The notes: generated from the letters alone by a model not told the origin. Counted from the first letter of the stretch, positions 3,860 to 28,582 are shown. The stretch: 64,000 nucleotides of DNA from Candidatus Doudnabacteria bacterium (GCA_031291995.1 JARLHZ010000034.1:14915-78914); one strand, 5' to 3'. Translations and numbers: made by a program.

Positions 3860-5140
3860 ATGAACAAACTAGCGTTAATTTGGAAAACCAAGGACCTGCG
3901 CAATAAAATTTTAATTGTAACGGGTCTGTTGTTAATTACCCGCGTACTGGCTCATATCCCGATTTCCGGCATAGATATTACCGGACTCAAAAGCTACCTC
4001 CAGCAGAGCCAGTTTTTTAATTTGTTGGATATATTTTCCGGCGGCGGCTTGACCAATTTCTCCATCGCCATGCTTGGTGTTGGTCCGTACATTACCGCCA
4101 CCATCATTATGCAGTTGTTAACCATTGTCATACCGTCCTGGGCGGAGTTGCAAAAAGAAGGCGGCGAGGCCGGCCGGCAACAGTTAAACCAATACACCCG
4201 CTGGATGACTATTGTTCTGGCTCCTCTCCAGGGTTTCGGCACCATTCGTTTGCTGCAGAGCCAGGGCGGCGCGGCGGTATTGGGAAGTTTTAGCCCGTTT
4301 GTATGGTTTACGGTTTTGTTGTCCATTACTACCGGCACGATGCTGCTTATGTGGCTGGGTGAAATTATGTCGGAATTTGACGTTGGCAACGGAGTCTCGT
4401 TGATTATTTTTGCCGGCATTGTCGCCCGCTTGCCCGCCAACCTTGGTTTTTTGCAGGGCTGGTACGATCCATCCAAGTTGCCGACAGTCTTGGCTTTTGC
4501 GGCCATGATTTTAATTGTCATTGCCGGAGTGGTTTTGGTAACTGAAGCGCAAAGGAATATTCCCATTGCCTATGCCAAGCGCGTCCGCGGCAACCAGCTG
4601 TTTGGGGGAGTGGATACTCATTTGCCGCTTCGCTTGAACCAGGCTGGAGTTATTCCGATTATTTTTGCGATTTCCGTCATGCTTTTCCCGGCCATGTTGG
4701 CCCAGTTTTTCGTCAATGCCAAATCGGGCCTATTGGCCGGGTTGGCGACAAAAACCATTGCTCTGTTCCAAAGCCAGGGGTTGTTTTATGGCGTGACTTA
4801 TTTTATTTTGGTTATGGCGTTTACGTATTTTTATACGGCTGTGGTGTTTAATCCCGAGGAAATTGCCGAAAATGTGCAAAAAAACGGCGGCTTTGTCCCA
4901 GGCCTAAGGCCTGGCGCTCAGACTGCGGATTTTTTGAGCATGGTGCTCAACCGTATTACCCTGGCCGGCGCCTTCTTTTTGGCCGTCATCGCTATTTTGC
5001 CTCTTATCTTGCAAAACTATACCGGCACTACTTCGTTAACCTTTGGCGGTACTTCTTTATTGATTGTGGTCTCCGTGGTCATCGAAGTAATCAAAAAAAT
5101 CGAAGCTCAGCTGACAATGCACGACTATGAGGGCTTTTAG
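3860..5140 (+). CDS. secY: preprotein translocase subunit SecY
   Basis: 426 aa, about 10 TM segments. Conserved position after L15. Confidence 0.93.
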   Translation: MNKLALIWKTKDLRNKILIVTGLLLITRVLAHIPISGIDITGLKSYLQQSQFFNLLDIFSGGGLTNFSIAMLGVGPYITATIIMQLLTIVIPSWAELQKEGGEAGRQQLNQYTRWMTIVLAPLQGFGTIRLLQSQGGAAVLGSFSPFVWFTVLLSITTGTMLLMWLGEIMSEFDVGNGVSLIIFAGIVARLPANLGFLQGWYDPSKLPTVLAFAAMILIVIAGVVLVTEAQRNIPIAYAKRVRGNQLFGGVDTHLPLRLNQAGVIPIIFAISVMLFPAMLAQFFVNAKSGLLAGLATKTIALFQSQGLFYGVTYFILVMAFTYFYTAVVFNPEEIAENVQKNGGFVPGLRPGAQTADFLSMVLNRITLAGAFFLAVIAILPLILQNYTGTTSLTFGGTSLLIVVSVVIEVIKKIEAQLTMHDYEGF

Positions 5141-5185: not shown

Positions 5186-5262
5186 AGCTATTATCCGTGT
5201 CATTGCGAGTGCGTCCGAAGCAATCCATATTCTGATAAGATTGCTTCGTCGTCAGCCAAAGC
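5186..5262. repeat. MITE-like solo TIR pair of the GIY-YIG-element hairpin family
   Basis: GTCATTGCGAGTGCGTCCGAAGCAATC…AAGATTGCTTCGTCGTCAGCC forms a long imperfect hairpin with no ORF between the arms. Lies downstream of secY. Confidence 0.6.
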
Positions 5263-5342
5263 CCCGAATCCCAGCAATGACAGCAATAATTTACCAATTC
5301 CCAAAAACCTGCCATAATATTGGCAGGTTTTAAAATGACTTT

Positions 5343-19494: not shown

Positions 19495-20511
19495 TTGTCC
19501 GAATTTCGCCAAAATCCAATTACAAAAAACTGGGTCCTTATTGCTCCCGCCAGGGGGAAGCGGCCGGATCAGTATAAAACTTACAGTGTTATGTTGGGCG
19601 TGCCGGAAACCGATCCGGCGTGCGTTTTTTGCGCGGGCAACGAACATTTAAACCGGGAAGTTTTACGTTTGGATTCAAGCGGCGAGCGGACCACGGGGAA
19701 GGATTGGGAAATACGGATTATTCCAAATAAATTCGCGGCACTGGAACAGACGGCGGTTTACCGCCACAAAGAATTTTATATTTCCCACAGCGGGGACGGC
19801 GAACATGAGGTCATAATTACGCGAAACCACAATGAGCCGGTCGCTTTGCAGTCCATTGCGGTAGTGGAACTGTCTATTCGCACATTCATCGAGCGGATAA
19901 AAACCTTTGCCAAAAACCCGGAGCTGGCTTATGTGCAGATTTTCCATAACCATGGACGCGACGCCGGAGCCAGCATTATCCATCCGCATTATCAATTACT
20001 GGCCACTCCTATTGTTCCGCCCCATGTCCACAGTGAAATTTTAGGGTGTTACCATTATTACCAGACCCACAAAAGTTGCGTATATTGTGATATTATAAAG
20101 GAAGAGCTGGAAGTAAAACACCGCGTGGTTCACGACAGCGAGCATTTTGTGGTAATTTCCGCTTACGCCAGCCGCAGCCCGTTTGAAACCTGGATTTTGC
20201 CAAAAAAGCACGGCGCGCGGTTTGAGGATATGGGTGAAGAGGAAATTAAACACCTGTCCTTCGTTTTAAAAGTGACGCTCGGCCAGCTGTATACTAAACT
20301 TTCCGACCCGCCGCTGAATTTTTATATCCACACCATGCCTCTTCGCCAGCAGGGCGGCATGCACAGCACCTACGAAGAAAAAGATTTCCACTGGCACCTG
20401 ACCATCTTCCCCCGCATCACCATTTGGGCCGGCTTCGAATTCGCCACGGGGATTCCGGTAAACCCGATAGCGCCGGAGGTGAGTACGAAGTTTCTTAAGG
20501 GAGAGGGTTGA
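19495..20511 (+). CDS. galT: galactose-1-phosphate uridylyltransferase-like (HIT superfamily, GalT family)
   Basis: 338 aa. HIT-like HPHYQL motif and GalT-like two-half architecture with Cys/His metal ligands. Confidence 0.7.
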   Translation: MSEFRQNPITKNWVLIAPARGKRPDQYKTYSVMLGVPETDPACVFCAGNEHLNREVLRLDSSGERTTGKDWEIRIIPNKFAALEQTAVYRHKEFYISHSGDGEHEVIITRNHNEPVALQSIAVVELSIRTFIERIKTFAKNPELAYVQIFHNHGRDAGASIIHPHYQLLATPIVPPHVHSEILGCYHYYQTHKSCVYCDIIKEELEVKHRVVHDSEHFVVISAYASRSPFETWILPKKHGARFEDMGEEEIKHLSFVLKVTLGQLYTKLSDPPLNFYIHTMPLRQQGGMHSTYEEKDFHWHLTIFPRITIWAGFEFATGIPVNPIAPEVSTKFLKGEG

Positions 20512-20552
20512 TAAAAGAGGGTGAAGGGTTGATAACACAATGCAAAGATATT

Positions 20553-20912
20553 ATGCCAGCGAACTCTTATAAAAATCTGACAGCGTGGATTAAGGCTATT
20601 GAATTGGTACAGGAAATTTATGTCATTACTGATAAATTTCCAAAAATGGAATTGTATATTTTGGTCAACCAAATGTTAAGGGCGGCAATCTCAGTACCTT
20701 CAAATATAGCCGAGGGTTATAGAAGAAATCACAGATTAGAGTATATACAATTTTTATCAATAGCAATTGCATCCGCGGCTGAATTGGAAACACAGCTAAT
20801 AATTGCTAAAAATAGATACCCGCTCGTAGATTATCAAAAAGCGGAAATTTTATTGGACGAAATTCAAAGATTGTTGTACGTCACAATTAGATCTTTGAAA
20901 GGAGGTAAATAA
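20553..20912 (+). CDS. four-helix-bundle protein (TIGR02436-like, 'rRNA intervening-sequence protein' family)
   Basis: Conserved IAEGYRRNHRLEYIQFLSIAIASAAELETQL. The ORF track starts at 20508; internal Met 20553 gives the typical 120 aa size. Confidence 0.65.
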   Translation: MPANSYKNLTAWIKAIELVQEIYVITDKFPKMELYILVNQMLRAAISVPSNIAEGYRRNHRLEYIQFLSIAIASAAELETQLIIAKNRYPLVDYQKAEILLDEIQRLLYVTIRSLKGGK

Positions 20913-23745: not shown

Positions 23746-23822
23746 GTCATTGCGAGTGCATCCGAAGCAATCTTTTTATAAATAGACTGCTTCGTCGGCT
23801 GCACTCATCGTAACGACATGAC
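23746..23822. repeat. MITE-like solo TIR pair of the GIY-YIG-element hairpin family (between tktA and tktB)
   Basis: GTCATTGCGAGTGCATCCGAAGCAATC, 13 nt, then GACTGCTTCGTCGGCTGCACTCATCGTAACGAC. The arms are imperfect reverse complements. Confidence 0.6.
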
Positions 23823-23842: not shown

Positions 23843-24817
23843 ATGATCAAACTTAATCCAAAAATCGGACAAAGCGATATTGAGCAGGAACCTACGCGTA
23901 AGGGCTATGGTCTGGGCGTGGTTGATTTAGGGGACGCCGATAAAAATGTTGTCGTACTGACCGCGGATTTGGCCGAATCGACTATGGTGCATGAATTCCA
24001 GAAAAAATTTCCGGAACGGTTTGTGGAATGCGGCGTGGCCGAGCAGAATATGATGGGCGCGGCCGCGGGCTTGGCACTTTACGGTAAAACCGCGTTTGTC
24101 TCGTCGTACGCCGTATTTTCTCCCGGACGCAGCTGGGACCAGATGCGGGTTTCGGTTTGTTACAGCGAGGCTAACGTTAAAGTGGCGGGCGCGCATACGG
24201 GGGTTACAGTTGGTCCAGATGGCGCAACCCATCAAGCGTTGGAAGATGTGGCGATAATGCGCGTGCTGCCGAATTTGGTCGTGGAAGTTCCGTGTGACTC
24301 CATTGAAGCACGTAAAACCGTCGTGGCGCTCGGAAAAATGAAAGGCCCGGCATATTTTAGATTGGGGCGCTCTAAAACCGCGGTTATAACAACATCGGAG
24401 ACTCCTTTTGCGGTGGGCAAGGCGGAAATTTTCCGCGACGGATCCGACGTGGCGATTATTGCCAGCGGTCCGGTTTTATATAATGGCTTGTTGGCCGCAA
24501 TAGAATTGGAAAAAGAAGGCATATCGGTTATGGTGGTTAATAATCATACTATTAAACCAATTGATAGCGCGACAATCATCGAGGCGGCTAAAAAGTGCGG
24601 CGCAGTGGTAACTTTGGAAGAACACCAAACCCAAGCCGGTTGCGGCAGCGCGGTTTGCGAAGTTTTAGCCATGAATTATCCGGTCCCCGTAGAAATGGTC
24701 GGCATGCCCAACACCTTTGGCGAGTCCGGCGAGCCGGAGCAGCTGATACAAAAATACGGAATGGGGAAGGATCATATTATGGAAGCAGTTAAAAAAGTTC
24801 TTCAGCGGAAGAAGTGA
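23843..24817 (+). CDS. tktB: transketolase, C-terminal (pyrimidine-binding) subunit
   Basis: 324 aa. Transketolase C-terminal half, adjacent to the N-terminal subunit. Confidence 0.9.
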   Translation: MIKLNPKIGQSDIEQEPTRKGYGLGVVDLGDADKNVVVLTADLAESTMVHEFQKKFPERFVECGVAEQNMMGAAAGLALYGKTAFVSSYAVFSPGRSWDQMRVSVCYSEANVKVAGAHTGVTVGPDGATHQALEDVAIMRVLPNLVVEVPCDSIEARKTVVALGKMKGPAYFRLGRSKTAVITTSETPFAVGKAEIFRDGSDVAIIASGPVLYNGLLAAIELEKEGISVMVVNNHTIKPIDSATIIEAAKKCGAVVTLEEHQTQAGCGSAVCEVLAMNYPVPVEMVGMPNTFGESGEPEQLIQKYGMGKDHIMEAVKKVLQRKK

Positions 24818-24828
24818 AACCTCTTTAT

Positions 24829-25209
24829 GTCATTCCGAGGGAGTGCATCCGACCGAGGAATCCCTTAGTATATGAAAGAGTATCAATATTTCGTATATAT
24901 AATGGCCAGTAATAGCGGCACGTTATATACTGGCATAACAAGTGATTTGTATAAAAGGGTTTATCAGCATAAAAATAACCTAATTGAAGGTTTTACAAAA
25001 AAATACCAATGTCATAAACTTGTCTATTTTGAGGAAACTACCGAGGCGGAATCGGCGATTGCAAGAGAAAAGCAAATTAAAGGTTGGAGCAGGTGGAAGA
25101 AGGAAGATTTGATAAGGTCAAAAAATTTTTACTGGGAAGACCTATCCAAAAGCTGGGAATAATAAACTAAGGGATCCCTCGGCCGTATTCCCAGGCCTCG
25201 GGATGACAC
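24829..25209. mobile_element. about 380 bp element: GIY-YIG (COG2827) gene flanked by about 36 bp imperfect terminal inverted repeats
   Basis: Left GTCATTCCGAGGGAGTGCATCCGACCGAGGAATCCC (24829-24866) and right GGGATCCCTCGGCCGTATTCCCAGGCCTCGGGATGAC (25172-25209) are reverse complements of one another with a few mismatches. Confidence 0.6.
24872..25162 (+). CDS. small stand-alone GIY-YIG nuclease-domain protein (COG2827/YhbQ-like)
   Basis: 96 aa. YFVYIMAS…GTLYTGITSDLYKRVYQH GIY…YIG motif. Confidence 0.8.
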   Translation: MKEYQYFVYIMASNSGTLYTGITSDLYKRVYQHKNNLIEGFTKKYQCHKLVYFEETTEAESAIAREKQIKGWSRWKKEDLIRSKNFYWEDLSKSWE

Positions 25210-25535
25210 ATGGCATAAAAATGAAAATTTTTAGCTTAAAGTCAAGAACTGGTTTGGTGGCATGGAGTATAATATTAGGATTTATCATTAATGTTATAGT
25301 AAGTGCTTTAGCTTACGCATTTGGTTACGTTGAAAGAACCCCGGCATTTTGTTTAACTTGTATATCACCTCAAACGGTGAGTTATTTTTATGGATTTCCA
25401 TTTCAGGTTTGGTTGGATCGATTTTCAAGTCCGGGCATTTGGGAATATTATTTTTTCTTTAACTTGCTTTTTTGGATTTTTGTCATTTTAGTCATTTTAA
25501 GTTTGATCAGATATTTTAAGCATAAGAAAGTGTAG
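25203..25535 (+). CDS. hypothetical small membrane protein
   Basis: 110 aa with 2-3 hydrophobic helices. No homology recognised. Confidence 0.35.
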   Translation: MTHGIKMKIFSLKSRTGLVAWSIILGFIINVIVSALAYAFGYVERTPAFCLTCISPQTVSYFYGFPFQVWLDRFSSPGIWEYYFFFNLLFWIFVILVILSLIRYFKHKKV

Positions 25536-25600
25536 TTAGCCCATTTATGGGCTGCTGTGATAGGAACAGCCGATAAATCGGCTAACTACAAAAAACAAAA

Positions 25601-26614
25601 ATGTTTGACATAATCAGCATCGGCGATCCGACAATAGACACGTTTTTGATTGTTAAGGACGTGGAAATAAAGGAAATTAACGGGCAAAAAAAAGCTCTGA
25701 TTAATTGGGGCGACAAATTGCCTGTTGATCAGTTTTATCGTACCGTCGCGGGCAACGCGGCTAATAACGCCGTGGGTAGCGCCCGCTTGGGCCTGGTAAC
25801 GGGATTCTATTGTGTCGTGGCCCACGACACCGGCGGACGCGAAATCGTCCACAAAATGGAAAAAGAAGGCGTGTCGGCTCGCTACATCATCAAAAACGAC
25901 AAACATCCGACCAATGCCTCCACGGTTCTGTCGCATGACGGCGAGCGCACGATTTTTGTCTATCATGAGCACCGGCATTATAAACTTCCCGAGTTCGCCC
26001 ATTCCAAATGGGTCTATTTAACTAGTATGGGGGTGGGGTTTGAAAAAATTTATAAAGATTTGGCCCGCTACCTCGACCGATATAAGGTAAAATTGGGTTT
26101 TAACCCGGGCACGTTCCAATTGCGGGCCGGCCCTAAAGCCAATGCGGAAATGTTAAAACGGACGGATTTGTTGTCGGTAAATGTCGAGGAGGCTCAGAGC
26201 TGGGTGGGGGAACACGGGCGTGACCCGGAATTGCTTTGCAAACATCTGATGAAGCTGGGTGTCAAAGCTGTGGCACTTACCGACGGCCGCAAAGGCGCGT
26301 ATAGTTATTCCAATGACGGCTTTTACTATATAGAAGAATATCCCGGTCCAAGGATTGAGGCTACGGGGGCCGGGGATTCCTTTACCACGGCCTATATTGC
26401 CGCTTTGGCGCACGGCCTTTCGCATAAAGACGCGTTGCGCTGGGGACCGATGAACGCGGGCTCGGTTGTCCAGCAAGTCGGCCCGCAGGCCGGTCTTTTG
26501 ACCAAAAAAGAAATGGAAGGCCAGTTAAAAAAATTGAAACAGTTCCAGGTGGTGGAAATCACGGAAGAAAATAATGAAAAATTAAAGGAAATGGTCAGTA
26601 AGAAAAAGGATTAA
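25601..26614 (+). CDS. PfkB-family carbohydrate kinase (ribokinase-like)
   Basis: 337 aa. C-terminal GAGDSFTTAYIAALAHG PfkB signature. Confidence 0.82.
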   Translation: MFDIISIGDPTIDTFLIVKDVEIKEINGQKKALINWGDKLPVDQFYRTVAGNAANNAVGSARLGLVTGFYCVVAHDTGGREIVHKMEKEGVSARYIIKNDKHPTNASTVLSHDGERTIFVYHEHRHYKLPEFAHSKWVYLTSMGVGFEKIYKDLARYLDRYKVKLGFNPGTFQLRAGPKANAEMLKRTDLLSVNVEEAQSWVGEHGRDPELLCKHLMKLGVKAVALTDGRKGAYSYSNDGFYYIEEYPGPRIEATGAGDSFTTAYIAALAHGLSHKDALRWGPMNAGSVVQQVGPQAGLLTKKEMEGQLKKLKQFQVVEITEENNEKLKEMVSKKKD

Positions 26615-26711
26615 ATTTATAAAATTGGTGTAATTAAGGAACTAAGATTCCTGCCTTCGCAGGAATGACACAAGTGTACTAATCCTAGAGGCGGGTATCT
26701 CCTAGTGAGTC

Positions 26712-27064
26712 ATTCCTGGCAGTAGCATCCGAGACCAGGAATCTTGAATCCCATGAAGAATTATTTTGTTTATATATTGGCAAGTAAAAAAGATGGAGTA
26801 TTGTATATTGGAGTTACAGGTGATTTAATAAGAAGAGTATGGGAACATAAAAATAACATAATAGAGGGTTTTACCAAGAAGTATTTTGTGCACCGGTTAG
26901 TATATTTTGAATCAACGACAGATGTTGAAAGTGCAATAAACAGGGAGACGCAATTAAAAAGATGGAAGCGCGATTGGAAAATTAAACTTTTTGAAAAAGA
27001 TAATCCCAATTGGGAAGATTTATATCCAAAAATAATTTAAGATTCCTGCCTTCGCAGGAATTAC
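26712..27064. mobile_element. second GIY-YIG element bounded by the same hairpin-repeat family
   Basis: Left GTCATTCCTGGCAGTAGCATCCGAGACCAGGAATCT (26712-26747). Right AGATTCCTGCCTTCGCAGGAATTAC (27040-27064). Extra partner copies lie at 26645-26673, 27076-27115 and 27161-27187. Confidence 0.55.
26744..27040 (+). CDS. small stand-alone GIY-YIG nuclease-domain protein (COG2827-like), paralogue of 24872-25162
   Basis: 98 aa. YFVYILAS…GVLYIGVTGDLIRRVWEH, colinear with the first copy. Confidence 0.8.
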   Translation: MNPMKNYFVYILASKKDGVLYIGVTGDLIRRVWEHKNNIIEGFTKKYFVHRLVYFESTTDVESAINRETQLKRWKRDWKIKLFEKDNPNWEDLYPKII

Positions 27065-27075
27065 GCACTTAGAAT

Positions 27076-27187
27076 ATGTCATTCCTGGCGAGTGCAGCCG
27101 AGACCAGGAATCTTACAACCAAACTGGTATTAAAATTTATAACTTTTATCATAAATAATTTAAGATTCCTGCCTTCGCAGGAACGAC
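27076..27187. repeat. gene-less TIR pair (Y arm 27076-27115, X arm 27161-27187) of the GIY-YIG-element family, directly upstream of gap
   Basis: GTCATTCCTGGCGAGTGCAGCCGAGACCAGGAATCT, about 45 nt AT-rich spacer, then AGATTCCTGCCTTCGCAGGAACGAC. Same arms as the intact element with the gene missing. Confidence 0.55.
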
Positions 27188-27200
27188 ATAAAGGGAAAAC

Positions 27201-28225: not shown

Positions 28226-28582
28226 ATGATGAAAATTACCAGAAAAAATTCTGTAATATTTGGGTTAATTTTTGCGGTCTCGTTTATCGTGGTGTATTTT
28301 CTGCAAAATTATATTTTGGTCGCTTTTGGTCTTGATTATTTTAACAGTCTTGGACTCGCATTTCTTCTGCCCTTATGTATTGTCTTTTTTTCTGAGGTTG
28401 CTATTTTGTATTTTAATCAGGAATTACCAATAAAAGAAAAATTTGTTGATTTTATTGTTGCGGGCATTTCCTTTGTTGTCGCGTTGACGATAGTTTGGTA
28501 TGGGGCGGTATATCTCCTTGCTTCTCGAAGTTACAATCTCGAAGGCTGTCATGCGGCAAATGGCATAAACTGCGGTGTTTAA
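28226..28582 (+). CDS. hypothetical small membrane protein
   Basis: 118 aa, 3 predicted TM helices. Wedged between gap and pgk. Confidence 0.4.
   Translation: MMKITRKNSVIFGLIFAVSFIVVYFLQNYILVAFGLDYFNSLGLAFLLPLCIVFFSEVAILYFNQELPIKEKFVDFIVAGISFVVALTIVWYGAVYLLASRSYNLEGCHAANGINCGV

Follow-up and report, generated by a model that had tools for sequence, protein, structure and literature searches.

A stretch of 64,000 nucleotides from a Candidatus Doudnabacteria bacterium (GCA_031291995.1, JARLHZ010000034.1:14915-78914; called here the window, with positions counted from its first letter) contains a small nuclease gene enclosed by two inverted repeats, which is the subject of this analysis. The open reading frame (ORF), named here ssn1, occupies positions 24872-25162 of the plus strand and encodes a protein of 96 aa, Ssn1, a single-domain GIY-YIG nuclease and putative site-specific single-stranded DNA (ssDNA) endonuclease of the Ssn family. 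Together with its left and right arms the gene forms a unit of 381 bp, designated element 1. The original prediction, made from the sequence alone, had placed the ORF at these coordinates within a span of 24826-25209, and both were found to be correct.

Gene, arms and genomic setting of element 1

The sole Pfam match of Ssn1 was the GIY-YIG domain PF01541 (E 5.8e-16, residues 5-76), and the residues of catalytic type (Y9, Y19, R29, H33, E66 and N85) were invariant across an alignment of 12 family sequences. The NCBIfam search of Ssn1 gave no match. A Y1 HUH transposase (Y1_Tnp) was absent between the hairpin ends in the Pfam search, which returned the GIY-YIG domain only.

The left arm (24828-24869, plus strand) is a tagged hairpin of the type known as Ssn-related motif (SRM) or CGTC-tagged repeat, both introduced below. 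It consists of a TGTCAT tag, the stem strand ATTCC-GA-GG, the loop GAGTGCATCCGA, the returning strand CC-GA-GGAAT and the tail CCCTTAGT. The right arm (25166-25208) is inverted, and its minus-strand reading runs from TGTCATCCCGAGGCC to GGCCGAGGGATCCCTTAGT. The repeat finder showed the ORF to be bracketed by two inverted-repeat segments (27 nt, 85% complementary, and 13 nt, 92% complementary) with an offset of one indel, and gapped local alignment of the left flank with the reverse complement of the right one paired TGTCATTCCGAGG-GAGTGCATCCGACCGAGGAATCCCTTAGT with TGTCATCCCGAGGCCTGGGAATACGGCCGAGGGATCCCTTAGT. Aligned with each other, the imperfect arms of approximately 42 nt matched in 33 of 43 columns, giving a score of 39. 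Shuffled flanks scored 11.6±2.1 with a maximum of 23, and none of the 5000 reached 39; of 5000 random genomic pairs matched in geometry, a single one reached 39, with the runner-up at 25. The limits of the arms were set on the basis of this score, which lies far beyond the shuffles and bears out the earlier claim that the right flank is an imperfect reverse complement of the left.

In each arm a 5-bp outer stem (ATTCC/GGAAT or ATCCC/GGGAT) is followed by a GA/GA internal loop, an inner stem of 2-4 bp and a loop of 9-12 nt, and the arm has a CCCTTA tail. The outer stems of the two arms differ by paired substitutions, T>C and A>G, that compensate each other: the left one reads ATTCC/GGAAT and the right one ATCCC/GGGAT. 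The same layout of 5 bp, tandem G·A and a short G+C stem was found throughout the family, e.g., in GTCATTCTGAGCGAAGCGAAGAATC. Neither a terminator-like T-tract nor a predicted terminator was found on the arms. The Rfam search over the window, at the gathering threshold and with E up to 10, returned nothing relevant, FtrB appearing below the threshold on short-loop hairpins only.

Element 1 lies between the gene for the C-terminal subunit of transketolase, tktC (23843-24817), and a small membrane-protein ORF (25203/25221-25535), within a co-directional operon comprising galT, tpiA, rpiB, rpe, tktN, tktC, pfkB, gapA and pgk. The gene calls agree here with the predicted location inside a central-metabolism operon. 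The GC content is 0.32-0.37 in both ssn genes of the window and in the small membrane-protein gene (24800-25600 and 26500-27200), compared with 0.46-0.57 in the flanking core genes. Logan contigs that cover the element 1 locus stop at the arms, as is expected of repeated DNA.

Small membrane-protein ORFs without a Pfam match lie at operon junctions at 25203-25535 (110 aa) and 28226-28582 (118 aa). The protein encoded by the former (MKIFSL…) was present in some relatives only and strongly diverged there, at 31-46% identity. An exact-sequence look-up of this protein gave no match and a metagenome scan with the single sequence found none; the scan repeated with an alignment of three membrane-protein sequences returned 5 loci.

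Tagged hairpins in the window and in published systems

The Ssn family was described by Chenal et al. in 2025 as single-domain GIY-YIG proteins of about 94 aa (CDD cd10448), whose genes are typically bracketed by inverted hairpin repeats, the SRMs (PMC11893778). The SRM of Neisseria is called NTS (CGTCATTCCCGCGMAVGCGGGAATCYRG). The neisserial protein SsnA binds the hairpin in ssDNA only, reading the unpaired 5′ (C/T)GTCAT tag together with the stem, and cuts the strand with the tag a few nucleotides to the 5′ side of it; double-stranded DNA (dsDNA), RNA and the reverse strand are not acted upon (PMC11893778). The NTS-ssnA-NTS unit was likened by the authors to an insertion sequence (IS) and to RAYT/REP systems, and its mobility was proposed without demonstration. 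NTS/SsnA reduces transformation in N. meningitidis, and its domestication was proposed as well (PMC11893778). The same hairpins, TGTC variants included, had already been catalogued by Di Nocera 2013 as CGTC-tagged repetitive extragenic palindromes (REPs); according to that article (PMC3733652), their stems open with A-T and T-A pairs, inverted dimers are frequent, and the repeats "apparently lack a dedicated transposase".

The window was scanned for tagged hairpins, defined as GTC[AG]T followed by two perfectly complementary stem strands of 5 bp or more, which enclose a loop of 3-35 nt, and by a C. Nine sites were obtained, whereas 1.03 were expected and none of 100 first-order Markov simulations gave more than 4. 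Eight of the nine fall at four loci: element 1, the region of a second ssn gene, ssn2, and two geneless doublets. Additional copies of the arms, which the original prediction had proposed to count, are thus present within the window, also without an accompanying gene.

The ssn2 gene (26744-27040, plus strand) encodes an Ssn-type GIY-YIG protein of 98 aa, and its identity to ssn1 amounts to 60% in tblastn and 55% in the MAFFT alignment. A long-loop tagged hairpin (GTCATTCCTGG..CCAGGAATC; z -2.0) is located directly 5′ of ssn2 on the plus strand (26709-26743), and a second one of the GTCATTCCTGG…CCAGGAATC form lies 3′ of the gene on the same strand (27078-27112). Short-loop tagged hairpins occupy the minus strand at three positions: 26646-26669 (GTCATTCCTGCGAAGGCAGGAATC, near the Neisseria NTS core; 8-bp stem, GAAG loop, z -4.7), 27041-27064, which begins directly behind the stop codon of ssn2 and forms the right arm of element 2 (degenerate tag GTAATT; z -4.1), and 27164-27187 (degenerate tag GTCGTT; z -4.2). 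All three have the 8-bp stem and the GAAG loop and fold strongly as ssDNA, and the short-loop form differs from the NTS core solely in a stem shorter by 1 bp. The two ssn paralogues are hence less than 2 kb apart, each with its own type of arm. One geneless inverted doublet of tagged hairpins, REPIN-like or resembling a miniature inverted-repeat transposable element (MITE), occupies the tktN|tktC junction (23746-23819), and the second one was found at 5199-5281.

These hairpins share with CGTC-tagged REPs, among them dRS3 of Neisseria and RPE-4/6 of Rickettsia, the unpaired 5′ CGTC/TGTC tag, the A-T and T-A first pairs, the short 3′ tail and the occurrence as inverted dimers (PMC3733652). The short-loop copies also agree with the stem of 8-9 bp and the loop of 4-5 nt that belong to the definition, and with their 8-bp stem and 4-nt loop those of ssn2 resemble the family CGTC-1 given there. 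The arms of element 1 agree with it in the tag and the first pairs and are variants in their interrupted stems and long loops. The long-loop variants fall outside the four CGTC families described, and Patescibacteria are not among the taxa named in the consulted parts of the article (PMC3733652).

The likeness to the Ssn/SRM system (PMC11893778) extends to the protein: a single-domain GIY-YIG nuclease of about 95 aa is encoded between inverted (C/T)GTCAT-tagged hairpins on both sides, and further hairpins of this kind are dispersed over intergenic DNA elsewhere. The case presented here differs in its host, a member of the candidate phyla radiation (CPR), in the element 1 arms with interrupted stems, long loops and the CCCTTA tail, which the published search pattern does not match, and in the presence of two or more ssn paralogues, each with a different type of arm, within 2 kb. 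The unit is not a new kind of element; its architecture and the idea that it resembles an IS have been in print for this family since 2025 (PMC11893778).

Homologues of Ssn1 and turnover of the operon junctions

An alignment of Ssn-type proteins was used to scan one genome per species, and 80 loci were returned (designated by L numbers where they need to be told apart, as are the relatives below). The homologues are 51-66% identical to Ssn1 and come from Chloroflexota, Cyanobacteria, Acidobacteriota, Bacteroidota, Planctomycetota, Patescibacteria, Proteobacteria, Firmicutes and other phyla. In 74 of the 80 loci a tagged hairpin was present within 200 nt of the gene. The 241.5 kb of homologous loci contained 310 tagged hairpins versus about 4 expected, and flank-to-flank inverted repeats with z > 5 were detected in 39 of 78 loci. 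The hairpins also showed a preferred orientation: upstream, the one closest to the gene was on the plus strand in 45 of 55 loci, and downstream, the closest was on the minus strand in 47 of 64, the canonical +/- arrangement being found in 33 of the 80 loci, which is near the 42% reported (PMC11893778). The hairpin offsets of element 1 (43 and 11 nt) are similar to the family medians (48 and 16 nt).

Several homologues are directly associated with the neisserial motif. In L093 (Burkholderiaceae) the gene is bracketed by the exact NTS core GTCATTCCCGCGMAVGCGGGAATC in inverted orientation. L059 (Nevskia) has one copy immediately downstream of the gene and another about 1.4 kb upstream, together with a near-core hairpin immediately upstream, and in each of L038, L039 and L065 one copy adjoins the gene. 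The homologues flanked by the exact core (L093, L059) share about 58% identity with Ssn1. The search seeded with the NTS-flanked Burkholderiaceae homologue gave no Neisseria-named protein among the top hits.

The locus was then compared with Doudnabacteria loci that encode TktC proteins of 80-90% identity and keep the operon. At the tktC|membrane-gene junction, where the window has Ssn1 with its TGTCATTCCGAGG arms, L007 (TktC 85% identical) encodes an Ssn protein only 47% identical to Ssn1, with arms of another type (CCATCCCGGAAT…CCGGGATCCAG), L009 carries a UPF0213-like GIY-YIG gene with unrelated repeats, and L013 and L016 are empty, having neither a GIY-YIG gene nor an SRM. The tktN|tktC junction varies likewise. 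The two genes overlap or are 5 nt apart in L011 (TktC 89% identical; junction at 780-795) and L016 (junction at 1380-1390), four different SRM doublets are present in the window, L003, L005 and L009, and the junction is filled by a gene for a 23S rRNA intervening-sequence protein (23S-IVP) in L007 and by a DUF2339 gene in L010. The original prediction had proposed to compare the region downstream of tkt in relatives for empty sites. Empty tktC|membrane junctions do exist in two of them, with flanks that are not exactly alignable, and ssn1 is not syntenic.

The closest homologues of Ssn1 (73-80% identical) reside in unrelated contexts, between pyrG and a hypothetical gene in L097, between tmk and thyA in L098, and also in L101. 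The arms at these three loci and at element 1 belong to one subfamily, TGTGTCAT(T/C)CCGAG…CGAGG(A/G)ATCCCTTAA. The type of arm follows the type of protein in four groups (the Ssn1 group, Ssn2, L007 and L005). The comparison supports the view that the ssn1 gene and its arms constitute a discrete cassette and not a syntenic housekeeping gene. Together with the low GC content of the ssn genes, turnover at the same junctions and occurrence in unrelated contexts are what one would expect if a cassette moved from site to site and from genome to genome, and not of a gene inherited vertically for housekeeping; the unit is probably mobile.

Other small genes and repeats were noticed at the junctions of this operon. 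In L009, the UPF0213-like GIY-YIG gene (4477-4930), with a GSKYTR motif and 35% identity to Ssn1, is flanked by direct and inverted copies of the unrelated repeat AATAGTGTTCGACCTTGTGGAGAACCTATT, which points to another, as yet undescribed combination of GIY-YIG gene and repeat. A palindromic repeat rich in CTCTCC/GGAGAGG fills the spacer downstream of tktC in Ssn-less relatives (L005 5990-6110, L013 330-395). The galT|tpiA junction of the window holds an ORF for a four-helix bundle of the 23S-rRNA-intervening-sequence type (20508-20912; PF05635, E 2.9e-31, with a weak bAvd match), and genes of the PF05635 type are present at other operon junctions in L003 (6024-6392), where the gene is bracketed by 51-nt inverted repeats of 73% complementarity, and in L007 (4609-4974). 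The 23S-IVP-type gene looks like another class of small mobile genes at the same junctions. Further small genes of the selfish type at operon junctions encode DUF559 (Vsr-like endonuclease) at rpe|tktN (L003 3623-3979, L005 3589-3942, L009 2085-2438), HicAB at gapA|pgk (L007 9100-9610) and Bro-N at galT|tpiA (L005 790-1599). Finally, a long GTAG-tagged palindrome, GTAGTTAGCC-CATTTATG-GGC … GCC-GATAAATC-GGCTAACTAC, separates the small membrane-protein gene from pfkB (25531-25590). It is kept in L009 (5229-5279) and L013 (671-721), with the inner part inverted and with compensatory changes in the outer stem (GTAGCGTGCC/GGCACGCTAC). This repeat class is distinct from the Ssn hairpins and may represent an invertible or REPIN-like element.

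Nature of the cassette and its possible mobility

Altogether, these results argue that the 381-bp unit is very probably an SRM-ssn-SRM cassette, i.e., an Ssn-family GIY-YIG gene with its cognate inverted tagged hairpins, and that it probably is, or was until recently, mobile selfish DNA. Several results weigh against this interpretation or limit it. The published degenerate SRM pattern, HGTCWYN(0-2)YYVSBRHN(0-5)WNVSBRGN(0-2)RNCYNB, had no match in the window, although it did match the NTS test sequences. This pattern is a hand-made search heuristic derived from 29 genomes and not a definition of the protein family; it recognized 17 of the 80 homologous loci, compared with 74 by the scan for tag and hairpin. 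It misses the arms in the window on account of their longer loops (12-15 nt, where the pattern allows at most 5 nt), their interrupted stems and, in the short-loop copies, the stem shorter by 1 bp, and the failure was taken as a limit of the pattern, the arms being variants. The probable placement of Ssn1 in the Ssn family is based on its domain, size, arms and NTS-flanked homologues. Folding with DNA parameters was no better for either arm of element 1 than for shuffles (z -0.4 and -0.8), and thermodynamics was therefore left out as support for the hairpins. The earlier claim that each arm is itself a hairpin is thus upheld in part only: the stem layout, the compensatory change and the recurrence in the family speak for it, and the folding energy does not.

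The signs of movement have their limits, too. No target-site duplication, which the original prediction had suggested looking for, was found. The AAAATTT motif flanks the tktN|tktC doublets of the window and L005 on both sides, but it is not adjacent to them, and no duplication is claimed on its account. An exactly alignable empty site at the tktC|membrane junction was not found either; only L013 and L016 were empty there, and these are too diverged for insertion boundaries or a target duplication to be defined. The role of Ssn1 as a "transposase" is unproven, GIY-YIG enzymes being hydrolytic. What holds of the autonomous micro-transposon proposed originally is a discrete IS-like cassette with comparative signs of mobility; its autonomy is unproven, with no target-site duplication and no known strand-transfer chemistry. 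By analogy with Neisseria, where the system plays a role at the host level by limiting transformation, the cassette may have been domesticated here too, possibly alongside continued mobility.

Domestication without mobility was therefore weighed as an explanation in its own right. Ssn1 would then be a "restriction" nuclease for single strands, trimming ssDNA that is taken up or exposed at its SRMs and so modulating transformation or recombination. The arms would be recognition or autoregulatory sites that happen to lie near the gene, and loss would account for the patchy distribution in relatives. The lowered transformation of N. meningitidis and the domestication proposed there (PMC11893778) are in favor of it, as is the fact that all ssn genes seen are co-oriented with the host operon and have no clear promoters or terminators of their own. 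It does not sit well with two paralogues of distinct arm types within 2 kb, with the filling of the same junction in relatives by a non-orthologous Ssn with different arms, with close homologues in unrelated contexts that have arms of the identical subfamily, or with the low GC content of the ssn genes relative to the core genes. We consider it unlikely as the whole explanation, and it is compatible with past mobility. Less probable still is a function of the arms at the RNA level, as REP-like mRNA hairpins that stabilize or insulate segments of the polycistronic transcript, the nuclease gene being incidental. The arms do lie inside a co-directional operon, and many REPs are transcribed and possibly act as RNA elements according to Di Nocera 2013 (PMC3733652). 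Against this stand the absence of any Rfam family at the gathering threshold and of a terminator-like T-tract on the arms, as well as the lack of RNA binding by Ssn homologues (PMC11893778), and RNA stability alone does not explain the tight, oriented association of ssn genes with hairpins across phyla.

Two readings touched on in the original prediction fared worse. A free-standing GIY-YIG homing endonuclease gene would cut dsDNA in ssn-less alleles and be copied by double-strand-break repair. Homing endonucleases such as I-TevI and the Seg proteins share the catalytic domain and the selfish behavior with Ssn1, and weak similarities below the threshold were seen for ssn2, which reached 16.6 bits with the group I intron endonuclease model TIGR01453 (cut-off 56; no hit for ssn1) and E 3.5e-4 with the homing endonuclease phrog_314 (ssn2 only). 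These enzymes, unlike Ssn1, have C-terminal DNA-binding domains, recognize one cognate dsDNA site and lack terminal hairpin repeats. Ssn1, with its 96 aa, has no DNA-binding domain, the insertion contexts are mutually unrelated and offer many different target sites, terminal hairpin repeats and geneless doublets are foreign to homing endonuclease genes, and the characterized family members spare dsDNA (PMC11893778), which makes a classical homing element very improbable. A housekeeping nuclease of the YhbQ/UPF0213 type with chance or terminator hairpins is the hardest of all to credit. The best PDB matches of Ssn1 are indeed the UPF0213 proteins 1zg2 and 1ywl, similar in size and fold class, but they are remote (E 3.6e-7 and E 0.038, respectively), and the motif after the His is GAKYTR in UPF0213/YhbQ versus GFTKKY in Ssn-type proteins, so the label "YhbQ-like" was wrong. 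Synteny of the gene is lacking in relatives, the inverted repeat greatly exceeds chance expectation and there is no terminator-like site on the arms; this reading is refuted by the inverted-repeat statistics, the scan of homologues for hairpins and the comparison of junctions. The homing, YhbQ housekeeping and terminator readings were accordingly rejected. PADLOC, searched for defense systems, and PHROGs gave no meaningful match.

For the mobile SRM-ssn-SRM cassette, a mechanism may be outlined. Ssn1 would bind its tagged hairpin arm as ssDNA and cut a few nucleotides 5′ of the tag, as family members do. The top strand would carry the cleavable left arm and the bottom strand the cleavable right arm. 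As the arms are inverted, the cleavable arm of each strand would be the one at the element's 5′ edge, and both predicted cuts would fall just outside the cassette. To judge from the comparison of relatives, the cassette and the geneless doublets appear to colonize repeatedly the short intergenic junctions of the sugar-phosphate/glycolysis operon and to move between genomes. Our best guess for re-integration is a route through ssDNA, at the replication fork or during DNA uptake, with host replication and repair borrowed as in RAYT/REPIN. GIY-YIG enzymes are hydrolytic and are not known to have a joining or strand-transfer activity; a host-assisted ssDNA route for this reason seems likelier than strand transfer catalyzed by a transposase.

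The RAYT/REPIN systems, derived from IS200/IS605, offer a functional and architectural analogy, with a small nuclease gene between cognate inverted ssDNA hairpins, geneless inverted doublets dispersed in intergenic DNA and no evident target-site duplication. They differ in their enzyme, a Y1 HUH tyrosine transposase that acts through a covalent intermediate and is unrelated in fold and chemistry to the hydrolytic GIY-YIG nuclease here, in the GTAG tag in place of TGTC/CGTC, and in that RAYTs are typically single-copy whereas several ssn genes occur per region. A bolder proposal may be formulated tentatively, as one that we hold to be plausible yet more apt to fail than to stand: Ssn could be the long-missing mobilizing enzyme of the CGTC/TGTC-tagged REPs, and the cassettes and doublets could form an active class of ssDNA-dependent transposons with a hydrolytic GIY-YIG nuclease, a mechanistic counterpart of RAYT/REPIN that repeatedly invades the same few intergenic junctions of essential operons in the streamlined genomes of CPR bacteria.

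For the most part, the finding amounts to a rediscovery of the Ssn/SRM system, now in a CPR genome. Each pair of protein and arm is a candidate for a new specificity in ssDNA-cutting tools. A modest gain is that Patescibacteria can be added to the range of the system; their hairpin variants have long loops and many G·A mismatches and were missed by the published pattern. The conserved Doudnabacteria operon constitutes a natural array of insertion sites, and its turnover gives comparative support for a mobility only hypothesized in the 2025 paper; it could also be used for a direct test of mobility. If the reading of these cassettes as Ssn-mobilized transposons is true, the turnover of the junctions would be the first comparative evidence of such mobility.

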